From: Candidatus Moraniibacteriota bacterium
GTDB taxonomy: Bacteria; Patescibacteriota; Minisyncoccia; Moranbacterales; UBA1568
Reading direction: 5' to 3'
DNA: 64,000 bases
NCBI GenBank assembly: GCA_028688415.1
Contig: JAQTYF010000001.1
Location: forward strand, 10,385 to 74,384
The number at the start of each line of letters is the position of its first letter. Positions within the stretch are counted from its first letter, which is position 1. Below are positions 9,749 through 63,063 of the stretch, piece by piece. The translations under genes were made by a program, and so were the position numbers. The notes below the pieces were generated by a model, which saw only the letters and a list, made by a program, of their open reading frames with translations, searched no databases and was not told the origin of the DNA.

Positions 9749-9905
9749 CCCAAAAGAATTTTTTCAGCATCCTTTCCACACTGACTGAGCAAGAGCTCTC
9801 AGATCGAAAAAAGAAGTTGTGATTGTGTAGATTGGGGACTGCTTTTTTCGTAATACTGAGAGCTCTTGTGAGAGGTGGAACGATGATGAAAAATTGGCTT
9901 TTGGG
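9749..9905 (+). mobile_element. MITE-like element, family 1 copy A (about 157 bp) with terminal inverted repeats CCCAAAAGAATTTTT / AAAAATTGGCTTTTGGG and an internal GAGCAAGAGCTCTCAG / CTGAGAGCTCTTGTGAG palindrome
   Basis: Near-identical reverse-complement copy at 26710-26871. The ends are inverted repeats of each other and are shared with family 2 (49995-50144, 62693-62843). Confidence 0.65.
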
Positions 9906-9967
9906 CGGTGAATAGAGACTTTCTCTTGTGGAGATTTGCACTTTAAAAGATGGTTTAAGTGCGCTTT

Positions 9968-12493: not shown

Positions 12494-12569
12494 TAGAGAC
12501 AATAGGTATCAAAAAAAACTCTCCTGCCATCTGGTTGGAGAGTTTTTTTGTTTTTTCAGGCTTTCTGCT

Positions 12570-14153: not shown

Positions 14154-14238
14154 ACTGAAGAAAAAAGATAGATGTGTATGAGAACAATGACATATTAAGC
14201 CTAGTATATCACAAAAAACGATCAAAGTATTTGGTGAT

Positions 14239-14264
14239 ATTTCAGTACTTTGCTATACTGAAAT
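14239..14264. promoter_or_regulatory. Inverted repeat ATTTCAGTA-N8-TACTGAAAT overlapping an extended -10 (TGCTATACT) in the divergent ligase/PKS-operon intergenic region
   Basis: 9-bp perfect arms. TATAAT also at 14265-14270. Confidence 0.35.
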
Positions 14265-14284
14265 CGTATAATTTATGAAAAAGT

Positions 14285-14662: not shown

Positions 14663-14749
14663 TAATATTTTTCTTCTTTTTTGATACAATGACTTGATAC
14701 TCGTGTATTTATGGTACAAGACATGGTGATATAATCAGAATGATCCGAT

Positions 14750-21905: not shown

Positions 21906-21960
21906 TGCACATTTTCTTTGTTTGGTATATACTATACATGTATTCGTAACAGCAATCTTT

Positions 21961-26400: not shown

Positions 26401-26557
26401 AGGGATCCTTTCTCTATCAGTTGAGGCTTGTTGTTAAGGAACGATTTTTGAATATGAAAAAACCACCCTAGAAGGTGGTTTTGAAAAAAATATGAATCCA
26501 AGAGAGGGGAGTGAATATTCTCTTTTGGAGTATTTCTTTTTTCATATGTTGATAGTA

Positions 26558-26655
26558 GTATACTCCCACACCAACCTTTTCGCAAGTATAAAAATTTGTA
26601 TGTCAAAAGTTTGTTTGTTCTCGGTAGTTGAAGGTTGGTGTGGGAGTATACTCCT
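26558..26655. repeat. Long hairpin: perfect 22-bp inverted repeat AGTATACTCCCACACCAACCTT ... AAGGTTGGTGTGGGAGTATACT separated by about 52 nt
   Basis: Exact complementarity of the two arms. Lies next to MITE copy B. Confidence 0.6.
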
Positions 26656-26709
26656 AAAAAACAAATTGGCAATATTCTGTCAAGAGGAGTCTTTTGAAGA
26701 AGAGTCGTT

Positions 26710-26871
26710 GTGACCTATTAAAAGCCAATTTTTCATCATCGTTCCACCTCTCACAAGAGCTCTCAGTAAAACGAAAAAAGAAGCCTCCAATCAACACACT
26801 CTTAGCTTCTTTTTTCGATCTGAGAGCTCTTGCTCAGTCAGAGTGGAAAGGATGCTGAGAAAATTCTTTTG
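26710..26871 (-). mobile_element. MITE-like element, family 1 copy B (inverted relative to copy A at 9749-9905)
   Basis: The reverse complement aligns over about 160 bp to copy A, including the internal GAGAGCTCTTG palindrome and the TTCTTTTTTCGATCTGAGAGCTCTTGCTCAGTCAG block. Confidence 0.65.
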
Positions 26872-26900
26872 ATAGGTCTGCAAGTTTTTTTGAAAAGAGT

Positions 26901-35751: not shown

Positions 35752-35826
35752 CAACCCCGCCCGCATCGCTTCGCCAGCCCGCAGTAGATACAGCGTTTCT
35801 GGCGGGCGTAGCGATGCGGGCGGGCC
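35752..35826. repeat. GC-rich imperfect palindrome (CCCGCCCGCATCGCT...CGCCAG...CTGGCG...AGCGATGCGGGCGGG) in the divergent rel / Fur-family intergenic region
   Basis: 15-bp perfect outer arms plus inner CGCCAG/CTGGCG arms. The local GC content is far above the window average. Confidence 0.6.
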
Positions 35827-41687: not shown

Positions 41688-41716
41688 TAAAATGTTTGGA
41701 AATTTGTACTTTTTTT

Positions 41717-41801
41717 AAAAATAGGAAAAAAACTTTTTTAGAAAACCATTGGGCGAAACTGCTTCGGACGGGTTTATCTAAAAAGTTTTTTTCCTATTTT
41801 T
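41717..41801. ncRNA. Structured element, copy 1: 24-bp AT-rich perfect stem enclosing a conserved 38-nt core GAAAACCATTGGGCGAAACTGCTTCGGACGGGTTTATC
   Basis: Left arm AAAAATAGGAAAAAAACTTTTTTA and right arm TAAAAAGTTTTTTTCCTATTTTT. The same core with a different but still complementary stem occurs at 48221-48297. Confidence 0.55.
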
Positions 41802-41819
41802 AAAAAACCATTGCTCTCT

Positions 41820-46692: not shown

Positions 46693-46766
46693 AGCGGGGT
46701 AGAGCAGTCTGGCAGCTCGTCTGGCTCATAACCAGAAGGTCGGTGGTTCGAATCCACCCCCCGCAA
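46693..46766 (+). tRNA. Initiator tRNA-fMet (anticodon CAT)
   Basis: AGCGGGGTAGAGCAGTCTGGCAGCTCGTCTGGCTCATAACCAGAAGGTCGGTGGTTCGAATCCACCCCCCGCAA. Near-identity to E. coli tRNA-fMet, including the unpaired 1:72 position. Confidence 0.85.
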
Positions 46767-47125
46767 CACACGAAAGAATTGAGTGAGTAAGGAGGAAGAC
46801 ACAAACGATTTTGTGTCTGTGTGGATGAGAAGGGATGTTTTCTTGAAAAGAAAAATCCCAGGCTCCTCGAACGAATCCACCCCCCGCAACACACGAAAGA
46901 ATTGAGTGAGTAAGGAGGAAGACACAAACGATTTTGTATCTGTGTGGATGAGAAGGGATGTTTTCTTGAAAAGAAAAATCCCAGGCTCCTCGAACGAATC
47001 CACCCCCCGCAACAAACGGAACAAAGTGAAGTGCAGAGAGGAGGGAATGAGCGAACTGCTTCGCTCATGTGTGGATGAGAAGGGTCGAAGTTCCGCGACG
47101 ACCCAGGCTTCTCGAACGAATCCAC
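46749..47125 (+). repeat. Tandem array (about 3.1 copies of a 123-bp unit). Every unit begins with the 3' end of tRNA-fMet (CGAATCCACCCCCCGCAACA). Copies 1 and 2 are almost identical; copy 3 diverged internally.
   Basis: Period 123 bp: CGAATCCAC at 46749, 46872, 46995 and 47117. Unit = tRNA 3' end + CACGAAAGAATTGAGTGAGTAAGGAGGAAGACACAAACGATTTTGTGTCTGTGTGGATGAGAAGGGATGTTTTCTTGAAAAGAAAAATCCCAGGCTCCT. Confidence 0.8.
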
Positions 47126-48195: not shown

Positions 48196-48220
48196 GAAAA
48201 AATAACGAGAAATGAAAAAA

Positions 48221-48297
48221 GAATCTTCAAAGAATTTTTAGGAAACCATTGGGCGAAACTGCTTCGGACGGGTTTATCTAAAATTTTTTGAAGATTC
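48221..48297. ncRNA. Structured element, copy 2: stem GAATCTTCAAAGAATTTTTA / TAAAATTTTTTGAAGATTC enclosing the same conserved core GGAAACCATTGGGCGAAACTGCTTCGGACGGGTTTATC
   Basis: Core identical to copy 1 except 1 nt. The stem sequence is unrelated to copy 1 but remains complementary (covariation). Confidence 0.55.
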
Positions 48298-48330
48298 TTT
48301 TTATTCTATATAAGTAAAATACTATGGATT

Positions 48331-49950: not shown

Positions 49951-49994
49951 AGAACGGATGAAAAAGAATAGTTTTTTCTACTTTTCTCTCAATA

Positions 49995-50144
49995 CCCAAA
50001 AGAATATTTTGTTGGTTGCTCCACTTGTTTGAGACGGCTTTCTTTCTTCTAAAAATTTCCTATGGATGCCGTAGAGTGAGGGAATATTTTTAGCAAAGAA
50101 AGAAGGCTTTCGAGGCTGGAGCAGAAACAAAAGATTGCTTTTGG
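49995..50144 (+). mobile_element. MITE-like element, family 2 copy 1 (about 150 bp). TIRs CCCAAAAGAATATTTTGTT / AACAAAAGATTGCTTTTGGG.
   Basis: Near-identical direct copy at 62693-62843. Terminal sequences shared with family 1. Followed by a TTGACA-17-TATGCT promoter-like sequence (50190-50218). Confidence 0.65.
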
Positions 50145-50278
50145 GTGGTGAGAGAAACTGTACTTCTTAAAAGGAATGGAAGTTTTTTATTGACAAGAAA
50201 GAGAGATACCTCTATGCTACATCGTCGTTGAGAATTGCTTCTCTACGAATATTTATGCAACTTTCCAAGGAGTAAAGA

Positions 50279-50650
50279 ATGAGCAATGTCAAAACTACGG
50301 CAAATCAACCGGTTCAGTGGTTTGTTGAATGTGATACTTTCACGAATGAAAGTATCGAACGGGAACTCTCAGCACGAGGACTCGAGAGTGATGCTATTAG
50401 TGCGCATTTTGATGCGCTGGGCAATGATGGGAAATTGCACAATGTGCTCGGTATCCCATCGACGTTTATCAAAATGTTGAAAGGAGCAAGGGTAAACGAT
50501 ACCCGATTCCAATTTCGTTTTTGGAAACGCAATGGTACGAAAGGAGTACTTTTTCCTGCCGACTTTGTCGAAAAGAAACCGCTCAGTCAGACAGCAGAAG
50601 TGAAGCGTGTCATCGCCAGGATCGGTGCCTTGAAAGACAAGAAAAAATGA
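50279..50650 (+). CDS. Hypothetical protein (123 aa)
   Basis: ORF downstream of a promoter-like sequence with an RBS (GGAG at about 50268). No motif. Confidence 0.45.
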   Translation: MSNVKTTANQPVQWFVECDTFTNESIERELSARGLESDAISAHFDALGNDGKLHNVLGIPSTFIKMLKGARVNDTRFQFRFWKRNGTKGVLFPADFVEKKPLSQTAEVKRVIARIGALKDKKK

Positions 50651-50758
50651 GAATGAGGAAAGAGAAATTTCTTCCCCGGTGAGGGTATCAATGATACTCT
50701 CACTTTTTCTTTTTCTGGCTTATTGTTAGCAAAAAAAGTCATCCTATGATATTCTAGA

Positions 50759-52597
50759 ATGACTTTTATAGAGAAAAGAAGTATGAATAAAAAAGGAAAA
50801 CCACTATCTGTTTGGAGCGTTCTCCGGTCGTATGCTTTCTCGGTCCGCCGATACAAATGGTCTGCGGTGAGTGTGTTTGTGGTGTATGGATTGGCATCGG
50901 TAGTGAGTGGCATACTCTCCCCACTTGTGTATAGACGTATTATTGATACACTTTCTGGTGCCACAGATCGAATATTAGTATCGGAAATCCTCTTTCAGAG
51001 TTTATGGATGCTTATTGGTGTTATCGTTTCCTATCAATTCTTCTATCGAGCAGGAGATTTCATTATCACTTTTGTCGAAAGCAAGACGATAGAAGACCTG
51101 AACAATCGAGCCTTCCAGTCTTTTATGCGTCAGGGACACACATTCTTCATCGACCGTTTCTCAGGAAGTCTCGTGGCACAAGCGAGAAGGTATGCTCGTA
51201 TTTTCGAAGATGTTGCTGATCAACTCGTGTTCAATTTTTGGATGCCATTTGTTCATCTGACAGGTGTTATTGTTACGCTCTTTTTTATTGAATCAAAAGT
51301 TGCTGTTATTTTCCTTGTTTGGATTCCGATTTACATCACTATTGCTATTTGGATTACCAAAAAGAAATTGCCGTATGATACCAGAAGTGCTGAGCAAGAC
51401 TCTCTTTTGACAGCCAAACTCTCTGACGCACTTTCAAATATTTTTGCTGTCAAAACATTTGCTTCTGAAGAACATGAAACAGACGTATTCTCGCTCACTG
51501 CAAAAAGCGATGAGCAGGCACGACTCAAGTCCTGGCGTTTCAATAATGTTCTGATCGCCATTCAGACGATTATGTTTAGCATACTCGAAATCATGGCTAT
51601 GTACGTCGTGCTCAAAATGTGGATTGTGGGAAGTGTGAGTACGGGAACGGTTGTCTTGGTGCAGGTCTATATTGGATCGATTTTTAGTGAATTGTTTGGA
51701 CTTGGGCGTGCTTTCGGGAGATTGATGAAAAATGTTGCCGATGCCTCTGAAATGATTGAGACACTCGAACGTACAGACGGAGAAGTTTTGGAAATGGAAG
51801 ATACTTTGGACAATACAACAGTTCTTTCTTCTGGCGGAATTACCTTTGATCATATTGTCTTTCGTTATTCCGCAAATAATGCGGTTTTCGATGATTTCTC
51901 TCTCGCTATCCGTCCTGGTGAGAAAGTGGGGCTTGTAGGTGCTTCTGGATCAGGCAAGAGTACACTTACCAAATTGTTACTCGGATTTATTGTCCCAGAA
52001 TCAGGGACGATTTCGGTCGGTGGACAGAATGTCTCACCACTTTCTCTCCAATCACTTCGTCGTCTCATCGCGTATGTTCCTCAGGATACCGCACTCTTTC
52101 ATCGAACGATTGCCGAGAACATTTCATACGGCAAAAAGGATGCTTCACGAAGTGAGATTGAGGCAGTGGCCAAGAAGGCTCATGCTCATGATTTCATCAC
52201 AGCTCTTCCTCTGGGATACGACACCTTGGTCGGAGAGCGCGGAGTAAAACTTTCTGGAGGGGAGCGTCAGCGCGTGGCTATCGCTCGGGCACTTCTCAAA
52301 GATGCTCCGATACTCGTACTTGATGAAGCAACGAGTGCTCTCGATACGACGAGCGAGCACCATATTCAAGAAGCACTCCACGAATTGATGCAGGGGAGGA
52401 CGACGCTCGTAATCGCTCATCGACTGAGTACCGTACGGGAGATGGATCGTATTATCGTTCTTGAGAATGGGAAACTGGCTGAATCAGGATCACATACAGA
52501 ACTGATTACACAGGGAGGTATCTATGCTGGTTTCTGGAATCGTCAGACAGCCTCATTCGGCGATGTGTTACTTGTTGATGAGGAAGAAGAGAAATAA
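50759..52597 (+). CDS. ABC exporter, fused permease/ATPase (MsbA/ABCB-like)
   Basis: Six-TM N-terminal domain, Walker A GASGSGKSTL, signature LSGGERQRVAIARAL, Walker B ILVLDEATSALD, H-loop. Confidence 0.85.
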   Translation: MTFIEKRSMNKKGKPLSVWSVLRSYAFSVRRYKWSAVSVFVVYGLASVVSGILSPLVYRRIIDTLSGATDRILVSEILFQSLWMLIGVIVSYQFFYRAGDFIITFVESKTIEDLNNRAFQSFMRQGHTFFIDRFSGSLVAQARRYARIFEDVADQLVFNFWMPFVHLTGVIVTLFFIESKVAVIFLVWIPIYITIAIWITKKKLPYDTRSAEQDSLLTAKLSDALSNIFAVKTFASEEHETDVFSLTAKSDEQARLKSWRFNNVLIAIQTIMFSILEIMAMYVVLKMWIVGSVSTGTVVLVQVYIGSIFSELFGLGRAFGRLMKNVADASEMIETLERTDGEVLEMEDTLDNTTVLSSGGITFDHIVFRYSANNAVFDDFSLAIRPGEKVGLVGASGSGKSTLTKLLLGFIVPESGTISVGGQNVSPLSLQSLRRLIAYVPQDTALFHRTIAENISYGKKDASRSEIEAVAKKAHAHDFITALPLGYDTLVGERGVKLSGGERQRVAIARALLKDAPILVLDEATSALDTTSEHHIQEALHELMQGRTTLVIAHRLSTVREMDRIIVLENGKLAESGSHTELITQGGIYAGFWNRQTASFGDVLLVDEEEEK

Positions 52598-52653
52598 GAT
52601 GCTGATGATATGGTATACTGGGAGGGGTAATTCGTGGAGAATATACATATCTT

Positions 52654-53829
52654 ATGAACAATAAAACACTCGTTGAATACGTTGCAGGGAGACTCCGTAC
52701 CGGTATCACTCGAGTAACTCTTGAAGAAGAATTGCGTACTGTCGGATGGTCAGAAGAAGAAGTCGAGGATGCATATCGATCAGGATTGATTGACTGTGGA
52801 TTGCCAATTCCGGATGAGAAAAATCGTGCCGTACTTTCTCGTACATCTTCTACCGTAGATATCGTGATCAACTTTTTCTCGTTTATCCTCCTCGGTATTG
52901 TAGCAACCGCACTAGGAATATTGCTTTTTGGTGTTGTGAACAAATTTTTTCCTGACGTACTGGATACCGTGAATATGTATACAGAGGCTTCGACGTCGAG
53001 TGCTATTCATTATGCTATCGCTGCACTCATCATCGGTTTTCCTCTGTATTATTTTTCAATACGTTTGTGGTTCCGTACCTTCCGTGAAGATGAAGGACGG
53101 ACAGAATCCAAACTTTCTCAGTGGTTGACGTATCTCGTATTACTCATTACCGCCGTGACGATTGTTGGAGACCTGATCACAGTCGTTTTTACTCTTCTAC
53201 AAGGAGAAATTACGGTGCGATTTTTCCTCAAAGCACTCGTTATCCTGATGATTGTTGGTATTGTCTTCGGATTCTATTATTTGGAGCGTCGTAAAGTCCA
53301 ATATCACGTTGATATTCCACGAACTCTTTTTCTCGTTTTCGGACGTATCGTGACAGGAATTCTTCTTCTTTCTATCGCACTTGGATTTTTTGCCTCTGGA
53401 TCACCTACAACAGAACGACAACGAACTTTCGATCGTACTCGATCAGAACATCTGGAGACGCTTTCGGATTGCGTCACGAGTTACGCAAAGACATTTGGAA
53501 AACTTCCTGTATCGTTGGATGATATACGTTATACGAGTGAATTGAATTATTGTGGAAATTCGATGCAAGATCCCGAAACAGCTCTTCTGTATGAATACCG
53601 CGTGATCACTCCTTCGACTGAAGAAGGTTTGGTGCGTGTCGGAGAATTTGAATTGTGTGCTACTTTCGCATTAGACTTCATGGTGAGTACGGATTTGATA
53701 CGCGTAGGGAACGAGTGGGCAGTACATCCTGCTGGAAGAAGTTGTGATATACGGAAAACACAACTTTCTGTTCCCGAAGGATCTATTCAAAAATCAGTTG
53801 ATGAAGTTCCGTTGGATTTTATTCGATAA
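52654..53829 (+). CDS. Hypothetical polytopic membrane protein with cytoplasmic N-terminal domain and C-terminal extracytoplasmic Cys-containing domain (391 aa)
   Basis: Four or five hydrophobic helices. Precedes the ECF sigma / anti-sigma pair. Confidence 0.5.
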   Translation: MNNKTLVEYVAGRLRTGITRVTLEEELRTVGWSEEEVEDAYRSGLIDCGLPIPDEKNRAVLSRTSSTVDIVINFFSFILLGIVATALGILLFGVVNKFFPDVLDTVNMYTEASTSSAIHYAIAALIIGFPLYYFSIRLWFRTFREDEGRTESKLSQWLTYLVLLITAVTIVGDLITVVFTLLQGEITVRFFLKALVILMIVGIVFGFYYLERRKVQYHVDIPRTLFLVFGRIVTGILLLSIALGFFASGSPTTERQRTFDRTRSEHLETLSDCVTSYAKTFGKLPVSLDDIRYTSELNYCGNSMQDPETALLYEYRVITPSTEEGLVRVGEFELCATFALDFMVSTDLIRVGNEWAVHPAGRSCDIRKTQLSVPEGSIQKSVDEVPLDFIR

Positions 53830-53872
53830 AAAGAAGATGAGAATTCTTTTTATAAGTGACTCTCGGTGTAGT

Positions 53873-54418
53873 ATGCGAAAAGAAATACTGGAGAAAAAAT
53901 TTCATTTACTCTATGACAATCAGTCAGACGCTCTTTTTCGATTTGTTTCATTTCGTGTGAATGATCGAGAAATGGCCCTTGATATTGTCCAGAATACTTT
54001 CCTCAAAATGTGGGAAGTATTGGAATCTGGACGCGCTATAGAGAATGAACGAGCATTTCTTTTTCGTATTGCTTCGAATCTTGTTATTGATTATTATCGG
54101 AAGTCCAAGGAATATTCGCTGGATAGTCTCGCTGAGGAAGGATTTGACGCTCCTTCTGATCCTGGTATTCCTATCGAAACACAGATCGATGCTGATGGAG
54201 CACTCGCTTGTTTGCAGTCTTTGTCAGAGAAATATCGAGAGCCGGTCTGGCTTCGCACGGTTGAGGATTGGTCAGTAAAGGATATTGCAGAGGTGCTCAA
54301 TGAGACAGAGAATGTGGTATCGGTACGTATCCATCGTGGATTGAAGCTCTGGAGAAGTGAAATTGGTAAAAAAAACGGTAAGAAATCAGCTTCTGAAACG
54401 TCAAGAAAGTATGTATAA
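53873..54418 (+). CDS. ECF-type RNA polymerase sigma-70 factor. Start taken at 53873; an alternative ATG lies at 53837.
   Basis: Region 2 (DALFRFVSFRVNDREMALDIVQNTFLKMWE) and region 4 HTH (WLRTVEDWSVKDIAEVLNETENVVSVRIHRGLKLWR). Confidence 0.75.
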   Translation: MRKEILEKKFHLLYDNQSDALFRFVSFRVNDREMALDIVQNTFLKMWEVLESGRAIENERAFLFRIASNLVIDYYRKSKEYSLDSLAEEGFDAPSDPGIPIETQIDADGALACLQSLSEKYREPVWLRTVEDWSVKDIAEVLNETENVVSVRIHRGLKLWRSEIGKKNGKKSASETSRKYV

Positions 54419-55412
54419 GAACAACCAACCAAAATATAGTCAGGGTGAGCGTGCAGTATTCGCTCGTTTTCGCGCCACACATCTTTCTTTAGGAGAGAAA
54501 CGGGTGCTATGGAAGCATATTCGATATTCGATGCAAAACAGAAACAATCCATCTGTATATGAGTCAAGGAGTATTTTTCTTAATTTTTTCTCGTTTTTGA
54601 CACATCGTTCATTTGCGATGCTTTCGTTGTCTCTCGTGATTATTCTTGGGAGTGGATTCGGTATCGCTCGTGCTTCTGAAAACGCTCTCCCTGGTCAGAG
54701 ATTGTATTCGGTAAAAATAAATGTGAATGAGGCTTTTATAAGAAGTTTGAAGCGTTCTGATGATGATCGAGCAGAATGGGAGAGAGAATTAACGAGTCGG
54801 AGAATTACAGAAGCCGAGACACTTGCAGAAGAAGGGCATCTAGGAATTGAAGAAAAAGATGAAATAGAACGACATCTTTCAGAGAACCGCAAGGCATTAG
54901 AAGAGATTGAAGGTCGAACAGTGACCGATGAAGAATTTCTTCCACAGAACATTCAGTCTATGACGAAGAAAATCAATGTACGCGTCGAACACACTGAGGA
55001 AGAAACATTTATTCATATCGAAGAAAAATTTGAAACCGAAGAGGATGAAGAAAGAGAACAAGAACAGGGTTTTGTCGACGGAGAAGAATGGCACACATCC
55101 AATATCGAATCCACAGACAATGATGTGGAAATTCCTGAATCATTGGAACAAGAAAAAGTATTAGGAGAGGATGATAAGAACGAAGATCTAGAATCCAGAA
55201 AGTCTTCTTCAAAAAAGGAAGTAAAACAACAAGATACACAGGATTCCTCCTCTGACATACAGACTGATACAAAGAAAAAACAAGAAACTACTCAAAGTAA
55301 ACAATCCTCGTCTTCACAAGAAGATAATCAAGACGATAGAGAAGAGGAGAAACAGAATGTAGAAGATGAGTCAAGCGTCGACACATCAGACGATGAAGAT
55401 TTGGAAGAGTAA
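54411..55412 (+). CDS. Putative anti-sigma factor: single-pass membrane protein with a highly acidic E/D/S-rich C-terminal domain. Start at 54411 overlaps the sigma stop (ATGTATAA).
   Basis: Position and translational coupling immediately after the ECF sigma. One TM segment (FAMLSLSLVIILGSGFGIA). Low-complexity acidic tail. Confidence 0.5.
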   Translation: MYKNNQPKYSQGERAVFARFRATHLSLGEKRVLWKHIRYSMQNRNNPSVYESRSIFLNFFSFLTHRSFAMLSLSLVIILGSGFGIARASENALPGQRLYSVKINVNEAFIRSLKRSDDDRAEWERELTSRRITEAETLAEEGHLGIEEKDEIERHLSENRKALEEIEGRTVTDEEFLPQNIQSMTKKINVRVEHTEEETFIHIEEKFETEEDEEREQEQGFVDGEEWHTSNIESTDNDVEIPESLEQEKVLGEDDKNEDLESRKSSSKKEVKQQDTQDSSSDIQTDTKKKQETTQSKQSSSSQEDNQDDREEEKQNVEDESSVDTSDDEDLEE

Positions 55413-55526
55413 AAATATTTTTGCTTTCTTATTGTTTTTTCTCGAGAAACATGTATGCTGGCAGTGGTAAAGTATTTCTATCAAGGTCAGTTTTTTAACA
55501 TTTTATGACTGTAAAAGGAGTTTATC

Positions 55527-57050
55527 GTGAACAAAACAACTATTCGAAGCGTACGGAAACCCGTTATTCCCGTTGTGAGGAAAGCTGTCCCCAAAGAGCC
55601 TTCACCATTGGTGAAAAAACTCTTGGGAAACGCAAGCCGTTTCGGCCCCAAGAAATTATTCGTCTTGGATACGAATGTACTCATGCATGATCCGATGAGC
55701 CTGTTTCGTTTCGAGGAGCACGATGTGTATATCCCGATGATGACTCTCGAAGAACTCGATGGTCACAAGAGGGGACAATCCGAAGTGGCTCGGAGTGCGA
55801 GGCAAGTCAGTCGGACGCTTGACGAGCTTGTTTCTGGAAGCAAGACAAACATCAAGGAAGGTGTTGATCTGCAGGAAAAATCTCAGGGTCAGGCGACTGG
55901 TCGTCTTTTTTTTCAGACAGAAGCTCTCGGCGATGCATTGCCAGATTTCTTACCGAAGGCCAAAGCCGATAATCAAATCATCGGCGTCCTCATTGCACTC
56001 AAAAAGTGTTATCCGAACCGCGAAGTGATATTGGTATCCAAGGATATCAATATGCGCATCAAAGCCAATGCTATCGGTCAGGTGGCACAGGACTATTTCA
56101 GTGACAAGGTCCTGGAAGATACGGATCTCCTCTATTCCGGCACCACAGAGCTTCCGGAAAATTTCTGGGGAAAAAATACAGAAACCTGGAAGGCTGGCGG
56201 ACATGATTTTTATCGAGTGCGGGGAAAATTGTGTTCTCAACTGTTTGTCAACGAGTTCGTATGGCAAGATGGTGATCATCCGTTTCGTGCGATCGTACAC
56301 GAGCGTGCTGGTCAGATGGCGATACTTCGGACATTCAAAGATTATGTCCATCAGAAGAATGCCGTATGGAGTATCACAGCTCGCAATCGTGAACAGAGTT
56401 TTGCTTTGTGTCTGCTCATGGATCCGGAGATTGATTTCGTGTCTCTCTCAGGGCAGGCGGGTACCGGCAAGACACTCCTCACGCTTGCGGCGGCTTTGGA
56501 ACAGACGCTCAACAAGAAACTGTACAGCGATATCATTTTCACACGGGTGACGATGCCTATTGGTGAAGACATCGGATTTCTCCCGGGCACAGAAGAAGAA
56601 AAGATGTTGCCATGGATGGGCGCGATGGAAGACAACCTCGATGTTCTTGGAGCGAATAACCCTCCAGAATTGCACAAGGAAGGGGAAAAGAAACACCCAG
56701 TTGATTGGAATCGTGTCGCTGGTTTGACCGATCTGATTCGTTCCCGTCTCAAAGTGAAGTCACTTAACTTTATGCGCGGGCGTACTTTCGTCAACAAGTT
56801 CATCATCATTGATGAAGCGCAGAACCTGACTCCTCATCAGATGAAAACCCTTATCACTCGTGCAGGACCAGGGACCAAGATAGTGTGTCTTGGCAATATC
56901 GCGCAGATCGATACGCCGTATCTGACAGAAGGGGGATCGGGATTGACGTATGTTGTCGATCGCTTCAAAGATTGGGAACACGGTGGGCACGTCACACTCC
57001 TCCGTGGCGAACGTTCACGACTTGCAGATCACGCAGCTGAAGTACTCTAA
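55527..57050 (+). CDS. PhoH-like ATPase with N-terminal PIN domain (YlaK type)
   Basis: PIN segment LFVLDTNVLMHDP...MMTLEELDG. P-loop GQAGTGKTLLTLAAAL. PhoH C-terminal region. Confidence 0.8.
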   Translation: MNKTTIRSVRKPVIPVVRKAVPKEPSPLVKKLLGNASRFGPKKLFVLDTNVLMHDPMSLFRFEEHDVYIPMMTLEELDGHKRGQSEVARSARQVSRTLDELVSGSKTNIKEGVDLQEKSQGQATGRLFFQTEALGDALPDFLPKAKADNQIIGVLIALKKCYPNREVILVSKDINMRIKANAIGQVAQDYFSDKVLEDTDLLYSGTTELPENFWGKNTETWKAGGHDFYRVRGKLCSQLFVNEFVWQDGDHPFRAIVHERAGQMAILRTFKDYVHQKNAVWSITARNREQSFALCLLMDPEIDFVSLSGQAGTGKTLLTLAAALEQTLNKKLYSDIIFTRVTMPIGEDIGFLPGTEEEKMLPWMGAMEDNLDVLGANNPPELHKEGEKKHPVDWNRVAGLTDLIRSRLKVKSLNFMRGRTFVNKFIIIDEAQNLTPHQMKTLITRAGPGTKIVCLGNIAQIDTPYLTEGGSGLTYVVDRFKDWEHGGHVTLLRGERSRLADHAAEVL

Positions 57051-57065
57051 CAGAGACAGAGTTCG

Positions 57066-57104
57066 AGAAACCGCACAGAAAGAATATTTCTTGTGCGGTT
57101 TTTT
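57066..57104. terminator. Bidirectional terminator (AACCGCACAGAAA ... TTTCTTGTGCGGTT) with T-run
   Basis: About 12-bp stem with a small bulge, followed by TTTTTTC. Confidence 0.65.
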
Positions 57105-57106
57105 CT

Positions 57107-57331
57107 TTATCGTCTGTATGTTCTCTCCGTTTCTTCCTCATCTTCGTTCTTGGCAATCTCACGGAGCCTTGTTTTCTCTGCCTCTGGATCAGTAATAGCA
57201 TTCATTATGGCGTCTTTTTCGAGCATGACATGAGGCACTACCCCGACAATTTCTTTGTATTTTGCTCTGAGTCTCTGTGATTCTTCCTCTGGTGTTTCGG
57301 AGGTGAAATTGAGTTCAAATTGTTTTGGCAT
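57107..57331 (-). CDS. Hypothetical small acidic protein (74 aa)
   Basis: ORF convergent with phoH and sharing its terminator. Confidence 0.35.
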   Translation of the reverse strand: MPKQFELNFTSETPEEESQRLRAKYKEIVGVVPHVMLEKDAIMNAITDPEAEKTRLREIAKNEDEEETERTYRR

Positions 57332-57458
57332 AGAATATTTATGAAGGATTATACTATCAGTATACCAGTATCATTTGTTTTGTGAATATCATAAGAAGGA
57401 TCTACTTTCAGAAGAACAAAAAAATGCTATACTAGAAAAGTAAAAAGTAAAAAAAATT

Positions 57459-58073
57459 ATGAATACAAACACACGTTTCCTATCGTGGTTGACAGGTATA
57501 TACGTCGTTCTTTTTTTGCTTCTCTCCATCAATCCAATTGATCGCACGACGTGGTTTGTCGAGAATCTGACGGTATGGATTATTCTCGCAGGAATACTCG
57601 GTCTCTTCTGGGGCGGGGTGCGTTTTTCACGCACTGCGTATGCGCTTATGTTCGTCCTCATTTATATGCATACTATTGGGGGGCATTATACTTTTGCCCT
57701 CGTTCCTTTTGATTGGGTCACTGATTTTTTTGGATTTACACGCAATCATTATGATCGTGTCGCTCATTTCACAGTCGGTTTCTATGCGTTCGCCATTGCA
57801 GAATATCTCTGGACCAAGAAACTTGTTGTAGGGAAATTCCTTTTGTTCACGTATCCTGTTTTTGTGATTGCGACACTTGCGATGAGTTATGAGCTTATTG
57901 AATGGATCTATGCTGCCACAGCCAATCCAGAAGCAGGGATGGCCTATCTCGGGAGTCAGGGAGACATCTGGGATGCTCAGAAAGATATGCTCGCAGATAC
58001 TCTTGGTGCTCTTTCTGCAATGATGCTTTTTTTCTGGTCGAAGAATATCTGGAAGAAAAGAGAAAATATTTGA
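57459..58073 (+). CDS. Hypothetical integral membrane protein (possibly YjdF/DUF2238-like)
   Basis: Five or six TM helices. Weak resemblance to the DUF2238 N-terminal pattern. Confidence 0.45.
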   Translation: MNTNTRFLSWLTGIYVVLFLLLSINPIDRTTWFVENLTVWIILAGILGLFWGGVRFSRTAYALMFVLIYMHTIGGHYTFALVPFDWVTDFFGFTRNHYDRVAHFTVGFYAFAIAEYLWTKKLVVGKFLLFTYPVFVIATLAMSYELIEWIYAATANPEAGMAYLGSQGDIWDAQKDMLADTLGALSAMMLFFWSKNIWKKRENI

Positions 58074-58077
58074 ACAT

Positions 58078-58809
58078 ATGCGAGAAATAATTATGGGTAC
58101 GGTGGCAGGCGTTATGCTGAGTATGCTGGGCGTCGTATTGTTTTATCTGTATGTATCAGATGATTCGTATCGTTTTGATACGCCCCAGAGCATTCCTTGT
58201 ACCGAAGAAGTAATGCTTTGTGCAGATGGATCTTCTGTAAGTCGCACTGGCTTGCAATGTGAATTTGCACCATGTCCGACTTCTGTTCTACCAGATATTC
58301 GTAAAGAGGTTTTTGGAGCACCGCTTGATCAGGCAAGCGAGAGAATAATGAAGAAACCATTTGGCATCTTGATCGATTCGAAGACATCCCCGGTACAGCC
58401 CGAGCGATTTGGTGGCTATCATACGGGGACTGATTTTGAAACATTTCCGAATGAAAAATCTGTCGATGTTTCGGTGCGTGCGATATGTACAGGAGAGATA
58501 AATATGAAACGACAGGCTTCTGGATATGGGGGACTGGTTGTACAACAGTGTACTTTGGATGGAGAGGCAATATCGATTGTCTATGGTCACCTCGCTCTTA
58601 GGAGTGTGACAGCAGAGAAGGGTGATATTCTCATACAAGGAGATGTGATAGGAATCTTGGAGATGGCAGAGAGTATTGATACGGACGGTGAGCGCAAGCA
58701 TCTTCATCTTGGAATATTCAGAGGTGATGCAATAAATATTCTTGGCTATGTTCCTTCACAGAAAGAACTTGACCAATGGATTGATCCCTGTATTCTCGTC
58801 TGTAAATAA
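58078..58809 (+). CDS. M23-family metallopeptidase (LytM/lysostaphin-like), membrane-anchored
   Basis: N-terminal TM helix. M23 motifs GYHTGTDFE (HxxxD) and KHLHLGI (HxH). Confidence 0.65.
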   Translation: MREIIMGTVAGVMLSMLGVVLFYLYVSDDSYRFDTPQSIPCTEEVMLCADGSSVSRTGLQCEFAPCPTSVLPDIRKEVFGAPLDQASERIMKKPFGILIDSKTSPVQPERFGGYHTGTDFETFPNEKSVDVSVRAICTGEINMKRQASGYGGLVVQQCTLDGEAISIVYGHLALRSVTAEKGDILIQGDVIGILEMAESIDTDGERKHLHLGIFRGDAINILGYVPSQKELDQWIDPCILVCK

Positions 58810-58830
58810 CAAAACAAAGTAAGAACACTT

Positions 58831-59097
58831 ATGGCGACTCTTTTCATTGATGTTCGTACCAAGGAAGAATATAAGAAACGTCATGTGACGGGTGCGATGA
58901 ATCTTCCTGTTGAGGAAATAATCGACGGAAAACTTGGCATGCTTCATGATATGAATCGTGACACAGTACTGTATCTTTATTGTCGGTCTGGCGGTCGCGC
59001 AGAAAAAGCGAAGGAAATTCTTTTTTCTCTTGGTTTTACAAATGTTTCCAATCTTGGTTGGCTTGAGAACGCAGAAAACTTTTCTCGTGAGCAATAA
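58831..59097 (+). CDS. Single-domain rhodanese-like sulfurtransferase
   Basis: Active-site loop YLYCRSGGRAEKA (CRxGxR). 88 aa. Confidence 0.75.
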   Translation: MATLFIDVRTKEEYKKRHVTGAMNLPVEEIIDGKLGMLHDMNRDTVLYLYCRSGGRAEKAKEILFSLGFTNVSNLGWLENAENFSREQ

Positions 59098-59186
59098 GTA
59101 TTCCTTTGGTGATCTGGAGTTTGATGGCAAAACAACAGAATAATGTGGTATGATAGGAAGGTAAAAGAGAAAACTCTATCGAATAT

Positions 59187-59570
59187 ATGTATAAGCGTCG
59201 TCTTTTAGATGTAAAAAAATTGATTGATTTTTGGTCTATACCACATTTCCTTTTTGGTACGTTGCTTGCTCTTGCAACGATTACTTTCGTTCTCTCGATC
59301 GAATACATGTTTCTTGTTACACTATTCTTGGCTATTGTGTGGGAATTGATTGAGATGAAATGGAGACTCTGCGAAGCACCAGGCAATGGTTTTGTAGATG
59401 TTCTTCTCGCACTCGTAGGCTTTACAGTGACGTTTCTTCTGGTAAATCGCGTAGGGGTGAGTCCAGAGCGGTATGGTTCTCTTTTGATTTTCACAACTTT
59501 GCTCTTTTTGTGTTTGAATTTTTTCGCATGGCGAGCTCGCTTCGAACACGACAGAGAGTTTCAAGGGTAA
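59187..59570 (+). CDS. Hypothetical membrane protein (127 aa)
   Basis: Three or four hydrophobic helices. Confidence 0.45.
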   Translation: MYKRRLLDVKKLIDFWSIPHFLFGTLLALATITFVLSIEYMFLVTLFLAIVWELIEMKWRLCEAPGNGFVDVLLALVGFTVTFLLVNRVGVSPERYGSLLIFTTLLFLCLNFFAWRARFEHDREFQG

Positions 59571-59588
59571 TTCATATAAAAAAAGAAT

Positions 59589-59990
59589 ATGGCAGAAGAA
59601 CAAGATATTTGGGAAAGAAAAAAAGTATGTATCATCGATGATAACGAAGATATTCGTTCTATTTATCAGACGAAATTCAGCGCGGAAGGATTTGAAGTCT
59701 TTATGGCCGTGAATGGAGAAGAGGGATTGAAAGTTATCAACCAAGCAAAACCAGATATTATTCTTTTGGATATAGAAATGCCAATCATGAATGGAATAGA
59801 GGTTTTGAAAAAACTTCGCGAAGATACTGCGTTATCACGTATTCCAGTGATTATGCTTACCAATCAAGATAGTGAAGATTCTTTTCGTACCGTTGGAAAA
59901 TTTGATACACAATTTTACATTATCAAATCTCTCGCTACTCCTCAGAAGGTAGTGAATATTGTCAGGGAAGTATTGCGTGCCAGAAGATAA
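59589..59990 (+). CDS. Stand-alone response regulator receiver domain (CheY-like)
   Basis: Receiver motifs: acidic pocket IIDDNED, phospho-acceptor LLDIEMP, and MLT...KS region. 133 aa. Confidence 0.8.
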   Translation: MAEEQDIWERKKVCIIDDNEDIRSIYQTKFSAEGFEVFMAVNGEEGLKVINQAKPDIILLDIEMPIMNGIEVLKKLREDTALSRIPVIMLTNQDSEDSFRTVGKFDTQFYIIKSLATPQKVVNIVREVLRARR

Positions 59991-60009
59991 TTCACCGATA
60001 GCTTTCCTT

Positions 60010-60411
60010 ATGATTCCCTGGAAAAAAGAATATTGTCTCGGTATTGAATCTATTGATACCCAGCACAAACAACTGATAGATATTATCAATGTTTTGTCTC
60101 AAAGGATTGCGAGTGGTATAGCCAAGCACGATGTTGAGATAGCTATCGTTGATATGGAACGCTATGTACAGACACATTTTCTTTTTGAAGAGAAATTTTT
60201 TACGGCTTGTCGTTACGAAAAGACATCAGAACATATCGCAGAGCACCATCTTTTTCTTGAAAAAACTCAAGAGTTTCGTACACGAGCTCTGACAGGAGAT
60301 ATCTCTCTTTCTCTCGAAATGCTTGGCTATCTCGAGGATTGGTTCTTGCATCATGTACTTGTCATCGATAGGCAGTACGTGGACGACTTCAAGAAGTTTG
60401 GCGTACAATAG
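60010..60411 (+). CDS. Hemerythrin-like (bacteriohemerythrin) protein. Start taken at MIPWKKEY (60010).
   Basis: W-x-x-E/Y...GIESIDTQHKQL (hemerythrin HHE cation-binding N-terminus), with further His/Glu ligand positions downstream. Confidence 0.65.
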   Translation: MIPWKKEYCLGIESIDTQHKQLIDIINVLSQRIASGIAKHDVEIAIVDMERYVQTHFLFEEKFFTACRYEKTSEHIAEHHLFLEKTQEFRTRALTGDISLSLEMLGYLEDWFLHHVLVIDRQYVDDFKKFGVQ

Positions 60412-60429
60412 ATCATACAATAAAAATAT

Positions 60430-61644
60430 TTGAGCACTATGCAAAAAAGTTATTTGCCAGTTTTGTTTTTTACACTTTTGATCGATATGATCGGCATTGG
60501 AATGATTATTCCTATCATACCGATTATTTTCACTGATCCATCATCGCCACATTTTCTTCTGGTTCATTATTCGACAGGGGAGCAGTATGTGTTCGCTGGT
60601 GCTGTGACGGCACTTTTTGGACTGATGCAATTTATCACCGCGCCACTTTTAGGAGAACTCTCTGATGTGTTCGGGAGGAAGCGACTTCTCACTATCGGAG
60701 TTGGTATTCTTGCGCTCTCTCAGATTCTTTTTGGATTTGGTATCGAGATTGTTTCTCTTCCGCTTATCATTCTCAGCCGTGCAATTGCTGGTATTGCTGG
60801 TGCGAACTTCAGTATCGCTCAAGCAAGCATTGCCGATGTGACCGCACCGAAAGACCGTGCGAAGAACTTCGGACTGATTGGAGCAGCATTTGGTCTAGGA
60901 TTCATCATTGGTCCGATGCTTGGAGGATTCATCGCCTCTACCACTGGGAGCCCTGCAGCACCGTTTTGGTTGGCAGGTATGCTTGGCGTGTTGAATGTGA
61001 TGTCTATCTCTCTTTTCTTGCCAGAGACGAATATGCACAGGAGTGAGAAAAAACATTTTACTCTCCTCAAAGGAATACATAATATCCAATCCGCTCTTCG
61101 TGATAAGAATGAGAAACCTCTTTATATCGCCAACTTCCTCTATGTGTCTGGGTTTACTTTCTTCACTTCGTTTATTAGTATTCTTCTCGTCTCACGATTT
61201 CATTTTACTGAATCCAACATCGGCACCTTCTTTGGTGTGTTGGGAATATGGATTGTTTTCACTCAAGGATTCATTCTTCGTATCTTGACCAAGAAGTATG
61301 ATGAGAGAACGATACTTCGCTACTCACTTCTGTTTCTTATGTCGGGTCTCGCACTCTACGCAATCGTTCCGAGTACTCTACTTCTTTATGTGTTGATGCC
61401 TGTCGTCGCTGTCTCGAATGGACTCTCGATGGCCAACATGGCATCGCTTATTAGTAAGGGCGTCTCCGAGACCAAGCAGGGGGCAGCGCTTGGCATCAAC
61501 GGATCGCTCATGGCACTCTCGCAGGGCATTATCCCTCTTCTCGCAGGATTCGGCTCAGGAGTTGTTGGTATTCAGGGTCCATTTTTCGCTGGTGCGCTTT
61601 CTGTATTCTGTGCTTGGTACATTCTTTTTGATCGTAAGGCATAA
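60430..61644 (+). CDS. MFS transporter
   Basis: 12-TM organisation with MFS motif A-like G..SD.FGRKR (GELSDVFGRKRLL). Confidence 0.8.
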   Translation: MSTMQKSYLPVLFFTLLIDMIGIGMIIPIIPIIFTDPSSPHFLLVHYSTGEQYVFAGAVTALFGLMQFITAPLLGELSDVFGRKRLLTIGVGILALSQILFGFGIEIVSLPLIILSRAIAGIAGANFSIAQASIADVTAPKDRAKNFGLIGAAFGLGFIIGPMLGGFIASTTGSPAAPFWLAGMLGVLNVMSISLFLPETNMHRSEKKHFTLLKGIHNIQSALRDKNEKPLYIANFLYVSGFTFFTSFISILLVSRFHFTESNIGTFFGVLGIWIVFTQGFILRILTKKYDERTILRYSLLFLMSGLALYAIVPSTLLLYVLMPVVAVSNGLSMANMASLISKGVSETKQGAALGINGSLMALSQGIIPLLAGFGSGVVGIQGPFFAGALSVFCAWYILFDRKA

Positions 61645-61815
61645 AGAATCGAAAATGAGTATTTTTGATACGATAAAAAGCTTTATAAAAGGGATAAAGA
61701 GGATTTTCTGATTGACAAAAACGAGAGAGTGCGCTATAATACAAACGTGTAATAAAGGCACAGCAAAAAACGGAGTCGAGTTTTCGCAGTATATAAGCAA
61801 CCGTAAAAAAATCGT

Positions 61816-62013
61816 ATGCAAGGAACTATCAAAACCCTTACAGACCGAGGATTCGGATTCATTTCTCGCGATGGCGAAGCAAAGGATCTTTTCTTCCACT
61901 CTAAGGAACTCGTAGGAGTCACTTACGACGAATTGAAAGTAGGCGACACTGTCTCTTTCGAAGTTGTCAATGGTGAAAAAGGCCCAGCAGCTACAGGCGT
62001 ATCTCGCATCTAG
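61816..62013 (+). CDS. cspA: Cold-shock protein (CspA family)
   Basis: MQGTIKTLTDRGFGFISRDGEAKDLFFH (RNP1 GFGFI and RNP2-like FFH). 65 aa. Confidence 0.9.
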   Translation: MQGTIKTLTDRGFGFISRDGEAKDLFFHSKELVGVTYDELKVGDTVSFEVVNGEKGPAATGVSRI

Positions 62014-62026
62014 TTGTCGCTTTCAA

Positions 62027-62065
62027 GAAACACCCTGAGCTTGTCGAAGGGTGTTTTTTGTTTTT
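62027..62065 (+). terminator. Rho-independent terminator AACACCC-loop-GGGTGTT + T-run after cspA
   Basis: 7-bp stem, 13-nt loop, TTTTTTGTTTTT. Confidence 0.7.
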
Positions 62066-62136
62066 CATTTTCATCTTTTTCCTTCTTGTTATTCCTACTT
62101 TTCTTTATTTTTCCTCTGTCATTTCAACTTCTCCTT

Positions 62137-62167
62137 TGTCATTCTCGCGTAGGCAGGAATCCAGAGT
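62137..62167. repeat. Partial second copy of the TGTCATTCTCGCG(A/T)AGGC(G/A)GGAATC element (compare 3238-3264)
   Basis: 27/31 identity with the left arm of the 3236-3348 element. The right-arm partner is not obvious here. Confidence 0.45.
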
Positions 62168-62244
62168 TTTGTTCTCACTCCGACCCGATGAATTCTACAA
62201 TGGTGTATAATGAGAGTGCTGTTAATTTCTTTTGAAGAACGATT

Positions 62245-62667
62245 ATGACTGCACCATTGTTTAGTATTTTTGCTCTCGGAGCAGAATTTTGTGTGACTGG
62301 CGTCGTGTTCTATGTTATTTGGCAAGCAGTGGAAAAAGTGAAGTTTAACAAAAAGCTCGGTTTTGGCGTGTTGGCATACGAAGTCATCTTCAATATTTCA
62401 TATATGGTCATGAGGTCTCTCGAGCATGTGAATGAGAAGCCGGACGTTGTAGAGAGGCCAGGGGAGACGGCGCTTGTTATTTTTCATGGAACATTTTCGC
62501 TCGTCATGTTTGTCGCGCTGGTCATCTTCTTTGTCATCGCCGAGCGACACTATGCCAAGGGTGAGAATTTCTTCGTCCATCATCATCGTCTGACGAGTAT
62601 CTTCCTCTATGCCTGGGGCATCTCTGTTTTTTCTGGAGCCCTCTTCTTCGTTCGTCTGTATATGTAA
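62245..62667 (+). CDS. Hypothetical membrane protein (140 aa)
   Basis: Four hydrophobic helices. Confidence 0.45.
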   Translation: MTAPLFSIFALGAEFCVTGVVFYVIWQAVEKVKFNKKLGFGVLAYEVIFNISYMVMRSLEHVNEKPDVVERPGETALVIFHGTFSLVMFVALVIFFVIAERHYAKGENFFVHHHRLTSIFLYAWGISVFSGALFFVRLYM

Positions 62668-62692
62668 AGAGTGTAGAAGGGTAAACAGAGTG

Positions 62693-62843
62693 CCAAAAAG
62701 AATATTTTGTTGGTTGCTCCACTTGTTTGAGACGGCTTTCTTTCTTCTAAAAATTTCCTATGGATGCCGTAGAGTGAGGGAATATTTTTAGCAAAGAAAG
62801 AAGGCTTTCGAGGCTGGAGCAGAAACAAAAGATTGCTTTTTGG
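62693..62843 (+). mobile_element. MITE-like element, family 2 copy 2 (direct repeat of 49995-50144)
   Basis: About 97% identity over about 150 bp with copy 1. Confidence 0.65.
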
Positions 62844-63063
62844 TAGTCTGTTCCAGTATCTCGTGTTGTCATAAAAAAGAAAAAAAGAAATGTGCTATAC
62901 TGGGAGTGAAAAGCCTTCAGAAAGGACTGCGAAAAATTGAGACCCACCTGGACTTCCGGGGAAAAATGTAATTTTTTCCGTTAATCTTTTTCAAGGGACT
63001 CAGCCGCTCTCCCGCATTGAAGGCTTTTTATTACCCTGAAAAGATATTGTTCTGTGTTCGAAA

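Follow-up and report, generated by a model that had tools for sequence, protein, structure and literature searches.

We analysed a 64,000-nt stretch of DNA (hereafter the window) from Candidatus Moraniibacteriota bacterium (GenBank assembly GCA_028688415.1, contig JAQTYF010000001.1, positions 10,385 to 74,384 of the forward strand) and found that it carries four copies, W1 to W4, of an element of 150-175 bp that contains no sizeable open reading frame (ORF), folds into one long imperfect hairpin, and was inserted at different intergenic sites in different lineages. To the interpretation that these copies belong to a family of palindromic (fold-back), non-autonomous mobile elements of about 150 bp, akin to REPIN, ERIC and bcr1 and distinct from a classical MITE, or miniature inverted-repeat transposable element, with its terminal inverted repeats (TIRs) and target-site duplications (TSDs), we give about an even chance. 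The family is specific to a sub-clade of Candidatus Moranbacteria, an uncultured lineage of the Patescibacteria or Candidate Phyla Radiation (CPR); the best matches of RNase J are to Candidatus Moranbacteria, with 75-77% amino-acid identity. Loci from other Moranbacteria genome fragments are designated below by L-numbers.

Results

Copies and insertion sites

The two copies of subfamily F2, W1 (core 49995..50145, + strand) and W2 (62693..62843, + strand), lie in direct orientation and are 98% identical across 155 nt (49995-50149 versus 62693-62847), in agreement with a preliminary description of this DNA, which had reported two direct, near-identical copies and had given the ends of W1 correctly. 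W1 starts with CCCAAAAGAATATTTTGTT and ends with AACAAAAGATTGCTTTTGGG, W2 starts with CCAAAAAG and ends with CTTTTTGG, and the only difference within the shared core (CCC to CCA on the left, GGG to TGG on the right) falls on paired bases and amounts to a swap of C-G for A-T. The copies of subfamily F1, described before as a separate family, are also present: W3 at 9749..9905 (+ strand), with the ends reported for it, and W4 at 26720..26871 (- strand). These two are 92% identical, and W4 ends in TCAAAAG...CTTTTAA. All four copies are intergenic, as had been proposed, and each starts 25-45 nt past a stop codon, where there is no other terminator. A covariance model matches W1 at 49984-50156 (170 bits), W2 at 62682-62854 (170 bits), W3 with 179 bits (full hairpin 9739-9915) and W4 with 169 bits (full hairpin 26707-26883).

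That the element was inserted follows from orthologous sites that are filled in some lineages and empty in others. An intrinsic terminator of RNase J (AAAAACTCCCC-loop-GGGGAGTTTTTTT) is conserved in the window (12512..12549, + strand, AAAAAAACTCTCC...GGAGAGTTTTTTT), L004, L005, L009, L022 and others. These arms recur in L012 and L018, where they enclose about 150 nt of element that is missing from the terminator of the window and of L004, L005, L009 and L022; the sense transcript of L012 is still predicted to form a single long hairpin, with the terminator arms as its closing stem and U7 after it. The spacer between a ManC-like gene and the promoter upstream of tRNA-Leu holds W3 in the window and is short and empty in L003, L006, L008, L009 and L014. 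Conversely, both spacers flanking secG carry a copy in L065 and none in the window. W1 and W2, which are recent copies judging by their near identity, have unrelated flanks. In three samples, Logan short-read contigs run no more than some tens of bases into W1, W2, W3 and W4 before stopping, as is usual for a dispersed repeat, and this accounts for the breaks of short-read assemblies of these genomes at copy sites. The characterisation of the repeat as a small, non-coding, multi-copy and dispersed element was thus borne out.

To look for more copies, as the preliminary description had suggested, we scanned 1.26-1.33 Mb from about 85 Moranbacteria genome fragments with the covariance model. This retrieved six further copies in five other Moranbacteria genomes (L004, L008, L012, L018 and, with two copies, L065) and nothing else convincing, and a second, broader model (R2) yielded no new member in 1.33 Mb. 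Known copies thus number about ten and represent nine independent insertion sites, the copies of L012 and L018 being orthologous. In the source genome, the scan covered about 78 kb, that is, the window and 7 kb beyond it on each side, and these hold the four copies of the window and no further one. The nearest available relatives, L083 (21 kb), L211 (14 kb) and L213 (12 kb), hold no copy.

The covariance model gave 0 matches on 664 kb of unrelated viral contigs; a loose scan of these contigs for the apical motif produced chance matches only, and the model rejected all 80 scanned loci. BLAST against E. coli genomes, plasmids and phages returned no match. The exact terminal pattern CCCAAAAGAATWTTTT-N110-140-GCTTTTGGG occurs in 0 of 185,579 representative genomes, a set that does not include the source genome, and two JGI metagenome matches to it were set aside as chance, both being coding sequence without a hairpin. 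When the whole window was searched against Rfam 15 at the gathering threshold, no family matched at the element; relaxed searches (E<=10 for W1, E<=1 for W3 and for D4, a second hairpin repeat described below) gave sub-threshold matches only, mostly to generic hairpin models of miRNA precursors and to unrelated families.

We also searched for solo ends using CCAAAAGAATTTTTTGG. Only L005 has a sequence that resembles one, the remaining matches being copies already known or stretches that probably code for protein, among them at least one in the TrpRS start region. A small hairpin, GCCAAAAG(N2)TTTTTTGGC, which is identical to the 5' end of F1, lies downstream of the RNase J terminator in L004 (12103-12125), L005 (12103-12125) and L009 (~12135-12155), and is thus kept in three genomes despite saturation of their synonymous sites. 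This hairpin may represent a solo end or an element remnant.

Structure and conservation

Together with about 10 nt of flank on each side, a copy forms a single imperfect hairpin of ~170 nt, with predicted energies of -74 and -75 kcal/mol (z = -8.3 and -8.9; the first value of each pair is that of W1), and 0 of 200 shuffles fold as stably. The preliminary description had envisaged two families that carry the same terminal signature of about 10 bp around different cores. We found instead that W1-W4 align end to end and that four helices, an asymmetric internal loop and an apical loop are common to F1 and F2, so that the two are subfamilies of one homologous family. They are old subfamilies, which coexist in this genome. 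RNAalifold, run on six sequences, predicted 52 pairs with compensatory changes in 28 of them. In an alignment of nine copies to the covariance model, from which all counts of pairing and invariant columns below are taken, 94.8% of the cells are standard pairs and 36 of the 52 pairs are altered on both sides. This level of pairing and compensation was reached by 0 of 500 shuffles, and sliding the partners by 1-3 columns left only 45-54% of the cells paired.

Conservation is located inside the element and not at its ends. None of the outermost 25 columns is invariant, the CCC/GGG ends included, and the AAAAG adjoining the termini is only partially conserved; the interior has 35 invariant columns, of which 15 are unpaired. 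The invariant unpaired motifs are UG..UGA in the 5' internal loop (TTGTTTGAG in W1, 50025..50033, + strand), GU.GA.UG.GG in the apical loop (GCCGTAGAGTGAGGG, 50068..50082, + strand) and GAG in the 3' internal loop (within TCGAGG, 50110..50115, + strand). The CCCAAAAG termini, by contrast, are not conserved across genomes and are the least conserved part of the element. Variable ends together with invariant loops are the opposite of what characterises a TIR recognised by a transposase. The long hairpin and its three unpaired motifs are kept by selection.

The rate of change points in the same direction. The orthologous copies of L012 and L018 are 93% identical, compared with 56% for the four-fold sites of the adjacent RNase J gene and 57-77% for the flanking spacers, and their rate of change, in stems and loops alike, is about one sixth of that at four-fold sites. 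Loops and stems are therefore constrained in place, or else are homogenised by exchange with other copies. Between W3 and W4, 12 of the 13 interior differences fall in unpaired columns, though most columns are paired. The two strands are not equivalent, and the modelled one is the folding strand: it has 32 G.U pairs and 6 A.C mismatches (counts that do not represent independent events), and it folds more stably than its complement in 8 of 10 copies under RNA parameters (by 7-19 kcal/mol) and in all 10 under DNA parameters.

These features bring in the main rival explanation, namely that the repeats constitute a structured RNA family with a host function, either a cis-acting element of the 3'-untranslated-region (3'-UTR) or terminator type or a small RNA, which is occasionally duplicated and whose mobility is incidental. 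The hairpin and its loops would then be kept for protein binding or for transcript-end control. We regard this as a tangible possibility, albeit one that we lean against. It would be in keeping with the strong covariation, with the excess of G.U over A.C, with the apical motif and the invariant unpaired UG..UGA opposite GAG (possibly forming tandem G.A pairs), and with the slow evolution of the orthologous copies. Against it, Rfam holds no matching family, and presence is patchy at orthologous sites, two close relatives having no copy in 21 and 14 kb. Moreover, the flanks of W1 and W2, at 98% identity between these copies, are wholly unrelated.

Orientation and promoters

The position of the copies relative to genes bears on the same question. 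Copies always lie just past stop codons, and in 7 of 8 scorable insertions they are co-oriented with both flanking genes; the L012/L018 copies are in the opposite orientation (again, these counts are not independent events), and the L008 copy lies between convergent genes. GC skew is positive over the whole window, and W4 lies on the minus strand among minus-strand genes, opposing the skew, which indicates that its orientation follows transcription and not replication. Location past stop codons and orientation with transcription would both suit an RNA that functions in the host. No promoter was found preceding any of the copies, which speaks against such a function, as does the situation in L012 and L018, where the better-folding strand is antisense to both neighbouring genes and lies inside the terminator of another gene.

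Promoter-like sequences had been proposed to follow three of the copies. Three copies are indeed followed by one: TTGACA-17-TATGCT downstream of W1 (50190-50218, + strand), TTGACA-17-TACAAT with a TG downstream of W3 (9969-9997, + strand) and TTGCCA-16-TATACT downstream of W4 (26672-26645, - strand). These are not quite the three that had been implied, and downstream of W2 (the 62693 copy) no promoter at canonical spacing turned up in the scan. The W1 promoter lies outside the element, since the orthologous gene of L083 has a homologous promoter without an element, and the one downstream of W3 has its counterpart in relatives immediately adjoining the stop codon of ManC. The downstream promoters belong to the host genes and not to the element, and given the L083 promoter we dropped the idea of an element-borne one.

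Flanks and search for a mobilising enzyme

Each copy is bracketed by an inverted repeat of its own, which is locus-specific and has a different sequence in each case. In W1, the left outer arm TTTCTCTCAATA (49983..49994, + strand) is unique to the locus and pairs with the right outer arm TGGTGAGAGAAA (50146..50157, + strand), unlike the flank of W2 in sequence yet complementary. The outer arms of W2, AACAGAGTG and TAGTCTGTT (62684-62692 and 62844-62852, + strand), are likewise unique and complementary, and those of W4, GACCTAT and ATAGGTC (within 26707-26883, - strand), form a perfect, locus-unique repeat. The inverted flanks read TTTCTCTCA...TGAGAGAAA in W1, AACAGA...TCTGTT in W2, GACCTAT...ATAGGTC in W4, GTTCAGCC...GGCTGGAC in L004 and AAAACTCCC...GGGAGTTTT in L012. 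In the outer helix (columns 5-12 with 169-176), about 89% of the cells are paired and 7 of the 8 pairs are altered on both sides. The element thus occupies the middle or the tip of an inverted repeat particular to the locus, in one case the loop of a conserved intrinsic terminator.

We then considered the proposal that the repeats are MITEs mobilised in trans by one transposase acting on their TIRs. In its classical form, a DDE transposase encoded elsewhere (for example of the IS630/Tc1 type) would bind the TIRs, move the element by cut-and-paste or copy-and-paste and leave a short TSD such as TA. The element is indeed small, AT-rich, non-coding and dispersed and has inverted ends; TA is found on both sides of W4 and on one side of the other three copies in the window, and W1 and W3 share TCAnTACCCAAAAGAAT...GCTTTTGGGyGGTGA. 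The flanks, however, are inverted repeats and not direct ones: for every fixed combination of offsets, at most 3 of 8 independent copies have a direct repeat of 2-5 bp. The TSDs that were to be looked for at the flanks are accordingly absent at fixed offset, and the proposal fails on this point as well as on the conservation of the termini, which vary across genomes around conserved interior loops. The preliminary description had added that a transcribed structured RNA would be the better explanation if no more copies existed and TSDs were missing; of these two circumstances only the second applies, as more copies do exist.

It had also stated that the window encodes no transposase, and this was confirmed, in that no sizeable ORF of the window has a transposase Pfam domain; about 14 ORFs have no Pfam match at all. 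A Y1/HUH (RAYT-type) domain was not found in the window either. The recommended search for a transposase or insertion sequence (IS) with matching TIRs gave no candidate in 1.4 Mb of Moranbacteria loci, and tblastn over the same 1.4 Mb with the TnpA of IS200 was negative, although this is a weak test. Considering, in addition, that the exact terminal pattern is absent from the representative genomes, we deem a classical MITE very unlikely.

The absence of both TSDs and a visible transposase would suit a different route, in which cores are copied between palindromic, terminator-like sites by template switching during replication or by repair of breaks at hairpin tips. Arms made of A-runs and T-runs would provide the microhomology, and inverted arms would let the core flip. 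The limits of similarity are in fact ragged: W1 and W2 stop matching at CC...GG, W3 and W4 at AAAAG...CTTTT, so that boundaries fall within AAAAG/CTTTT runs, and W1 and W3 share TCAnTACCC...GGGyGGTGA. The centring of each copy in a locus-specific palindrome is also accounted for. Strand asymmetry and conserved loops, on the other hand, are not predicted by such a process, the L012 junction has no A/T-run microhomology, and we know of no established mechanism of this transposase-free kind that moves 150-bp segments between unlinked loci. Spread by this route therefore appears unlikely, although an unrelated core in the same window, described next, behaves alike.

A second hairpin repeat and other observations

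The window contains an unrelated 55-nt repeat, D4, at 41735-41789 and 48235-48289, within full hairpins at 41711-41807 and 48216-48302. Its core of 48-55 nt (TTTTAGGAAACCATTGGGCGAAACTGCTTCGGACGGGTTTATCTAAAA) is 96-98% identical between the copies and lies at the tip of long, locus-specific, near-perfectly complementary arms. In L211 (2140-2245) and L212 (~188-242), a core 98% identical to that of D4 is present in the orthologous QueH-PIF1 spacer, in inverted orientation and between different arms, which indicates that cores can flip or can be acquired independently. The PIF1 of the L211 relative is 77% identical to that of the window, and the four-fold sites of PIF1 are saturated (35% identity). 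D4 supports the notion of a general process in this clade by which cores become nested at hairpin tips.

Unrelated long hairpins occupy comparable intergenic positions in other Moranbacteria loci. L009 has a 190-nt hairpin (12150-12340, -104 kcal/mol) where L004 has its element copy, L034 has three hairpins of ~90 nt in a row (4381-4731), and another hairpin adjoins the element copy of L008 (12485-12577). Within the window, a strong hairpin with 26-nt arms of 96% complementarity (26553-26656) adjoins W4, and a GC-rich hairpin (35756-35824, CCCGCCCGCATCGC...GCGATGCGGGCGGG) lies between the divergent relA/spoT and fur genes. In L018 (~5620-5690) and L004 (~9650-9720), small GC-rich hairpins, for example CCCGCCGAAGGCGGG, interrupt tRNA-Leu-like sequences that lie upstream of an intact tRNA-Leu; these hairpins may belong to a further family of mini-hairpin insertions. 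Downstream of W2, a multi-branched structured region (62895-63045, -51 kcal/mol, z = -4.4) closed by GGGAGUGAAAAGCCUUCAG...CAUUGAAGGCUUUUUAUUACCC has no Rfam match. On one side of it is a -10-like box, TGCTATACT, and on the other a 137-aa ORF followed by copper/HMA P-type ATPase genes; the region may be a leader or riboswitch-like element.

Other features of the window concern its RNA genes and one gene cluster. The 23S rRNA gene is interrupted by a group I intron (Rfam, 67.7 bits), after which comes an ORF encoding a LAGLIDADG homing endonuclease (positions 1-2085, 169-379 and 554-1090). A 50-nt copy of the 3' part of the 5S rRNA gene (2264-2372), 98% identical, is found 121 nt downstream of it (2446-2495). 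A 123-nt tandem duplication with 99% identity (46749-46994) begins inside tRNA-Met (46693-46767), in a tRNA cluster of Ala, Ile, Met, Met and Asp. Finally, between RNase J and TrpRS the window carries an island (12570-23013) resembling polyketide or fatty-acid synthases, with genes for an AMP-binding enzyme, a ketosynthase, an 1147-aa AT-KR-DH protein and a PPTase and several ORFs without Pfam match. In the related Moranbacteria examined (for example L004, L005, L009, L012 and L018), TrpRS directly follows RNase J with no island between them.

Discussion

Among known systems, REPINs come to mind first. They are doublets of REP sequences whose hairpins are preserved by compensatory changes and are mobilised by RAYT tyrosine transposases (PMC3116915). 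The element described here is similarly non-autonomous and intergenic, forms a hairpin of ~100 nt or longer predicted in single-stranded DNA or mRNA, and shows compensatory changes in its stem (PMC3116915), in our case at the 36 pairs mentioned above. It also lacks a classical TSD, has persisted for long in its lineage and presumably depends on an enzyme encoded elsewhere. The distribution of conservation is reversed, however: the ends of REPINs, the REP 16-mers, are invariant and the spacer is variable, whereas here it is the ends that vary, without an invariant position in the outer 25 columns, and the apical and internal loops that do not. The ends of our element also lack the short, GC-rich REP units with their GTAG. 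REPINs reach tens to hundreds of copies per genome and go with a RAYT gene flanked by the repeats; the about 78 kb scanned in the source genome hold four copies.

With ERIC of enterobacteria and bcr1, transcribed palindromic repeats that it resembles functionally, the element shares the form of an imperfect intergenic palindrome (127-155 bp), an uneven distribution among relatives, compensatory changes and the lack of a known transposase. Nothing in E. coli genomes resembles it in sequence, and to our knowledge nesting inside locus-specific inverted repeats has not been described for either ERIC or bcr1. In the Bacillus cereus group, bcr1 is an intergenic palindrome with compensatory changes and 5-bp direct repeats (PMC3184786), which differ from the situation here, where no direct repeat occurs at fixed offset. 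Bacterial MITEs are recognised by TIRs, TSDs, the absence of a transposase, a stable stem-loop and filled and empty sites (PMC3184786). Like Correia/NEMIS, Nezha and other MITEs, our element is small (below ~400 bp), has no transposase ORF, has inverted ends (the whole element being one imperfect inverted repeat), forms a stable stem-loop and displays filled and empty sites; unlike them, it has no TSD, no known parent IS with matching TIRs and no conservation of its terminal bases across genomes.

The pneumococcal SPRITE is a dispersed repeat that resembles a Rho-independent terminator and lies downstream of genes (PMC3184786). Our element is much longer, has no U-tract of its own at its outer end, and in one copy is nested in a real terminator. 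Elements of the IS1397 and IS621 type insert into REP palindromes (PMC3184786), and their target is likewise a hairpin-forming palindrome and not a site defined by sequence. They are, however, full insertion sequences that encode transposases, whereas the DNA inserted here is a non-coding hairpin. Integron attC sites, 60-140 nt long, are imperfect palindromes that function as a single folded strand with important unpaired bases. In our element the RYYYAAC/GTTRRRY core is missing, the termini being CCCAAAAG...CTTTTGGG, as are a cassette array and an integrase; each copy stands alone among housekeeping genes. Miniature derivatives of IS200/IS605 (PATE-type) have distinct sub-terminal hairpins at both ends and insert 3' of a fixed tetra- or pentanucleotide. 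Here, there is a single end-to-end hairpin, and the bases 5' of the copies differ (AATA, AGTG, ACTA, CCTA and GCCG). We also considered and dropped 6S RNA, SRP RNA, retron msr-msd, bridge RNA, omega RNA and DNA uptake sequences, as well as a hammerhead ribozyme, because CUGAUGAG occurs only in L004. We therefore place the element in the class of palindromic intergenic repeats but in no named family; where this could be tested, it shows no sequence similarity to ERIC, bcr1 or SPRITE, the last of which it also resembles functionally.

Insertion, structure, conservation and the lack of TSDs are observed; from them we infer how a palindromic mobile element of this kind might spread. Some factor whose gene lies elsewhere in the genome would copy it as a hairpin of single-stranded DNA or RNA, and the element would preferentially enter sites where the DNA can itself form a hairpin. 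An inserted copy would usually be co-transcribed at the 3' end of the upstream gene, and its very stable stem may then, between the stop codon and the next promoter, shape the end of the transcript as a terminator, an insulator or a 3' stabiliser. Such a role would account for the retention and the conservation of the copies.

Several points weigh against this interpretation. No mobilising enzyme was found, either among the domains encoded in the window or, for insertion sequences with such ends, in the 1.4 Mb of Moranbacteria loci. With about ten copies at nine independent sites, the statistics on orientation and target are weak. The ragged limits of similarity between close copies fit an imprecise or recombinational spread better than a site-specific enzyme. 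The conserved unpaired motifs and the conservation in situ are equally expected of an RNA that is purely functional in the host. In L012 and L018, the antisense position of the better-folding strand means that a role in the 3'-UTR does not by itself explain the strand asymmetry, and the outer arms of W1-W4 have no U-tracts, so that they are not canonical terminators.

A bolder proposal would combine the element with the unrelated D4: strand-specific hairpin cores of conserved structure would enter the tips of existing hairpins and terminators without TSD or conventional transposase, flip between arms, and be kept by the host as transcript ends. This would amount to a nested-hairpin mobilome specific to CPR bacteria and to a mode of DNA spread that has not been described, and we consider it rather doubtful.

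Few mobile elements are expected in the very small genomes of CPR/Patescibacteria, and our search of the open literature yielded no account of repeats of the MITE, REP or REPIN kind in this group. Our results indicate that CPR genomes do host long-lived dispersed repeats, and that these show an unusual combination of properties: they are inserted without target duplication and centred in pre-existing hairpins, their loops are conserved and not their ends, and they evolve far more slowly than neutral sites. The covariance model can be used to annotate these elements in metagenome-assembled genomes of Moranbacteria. If entry is indeed specific for hairpin tips, or independent of an enzyme, the family would reveal a new mechanism; if the repeats are functional RNAs, they would constitute a new class of structured RNA in a phylum with almost no characterised non-coding RNAs.

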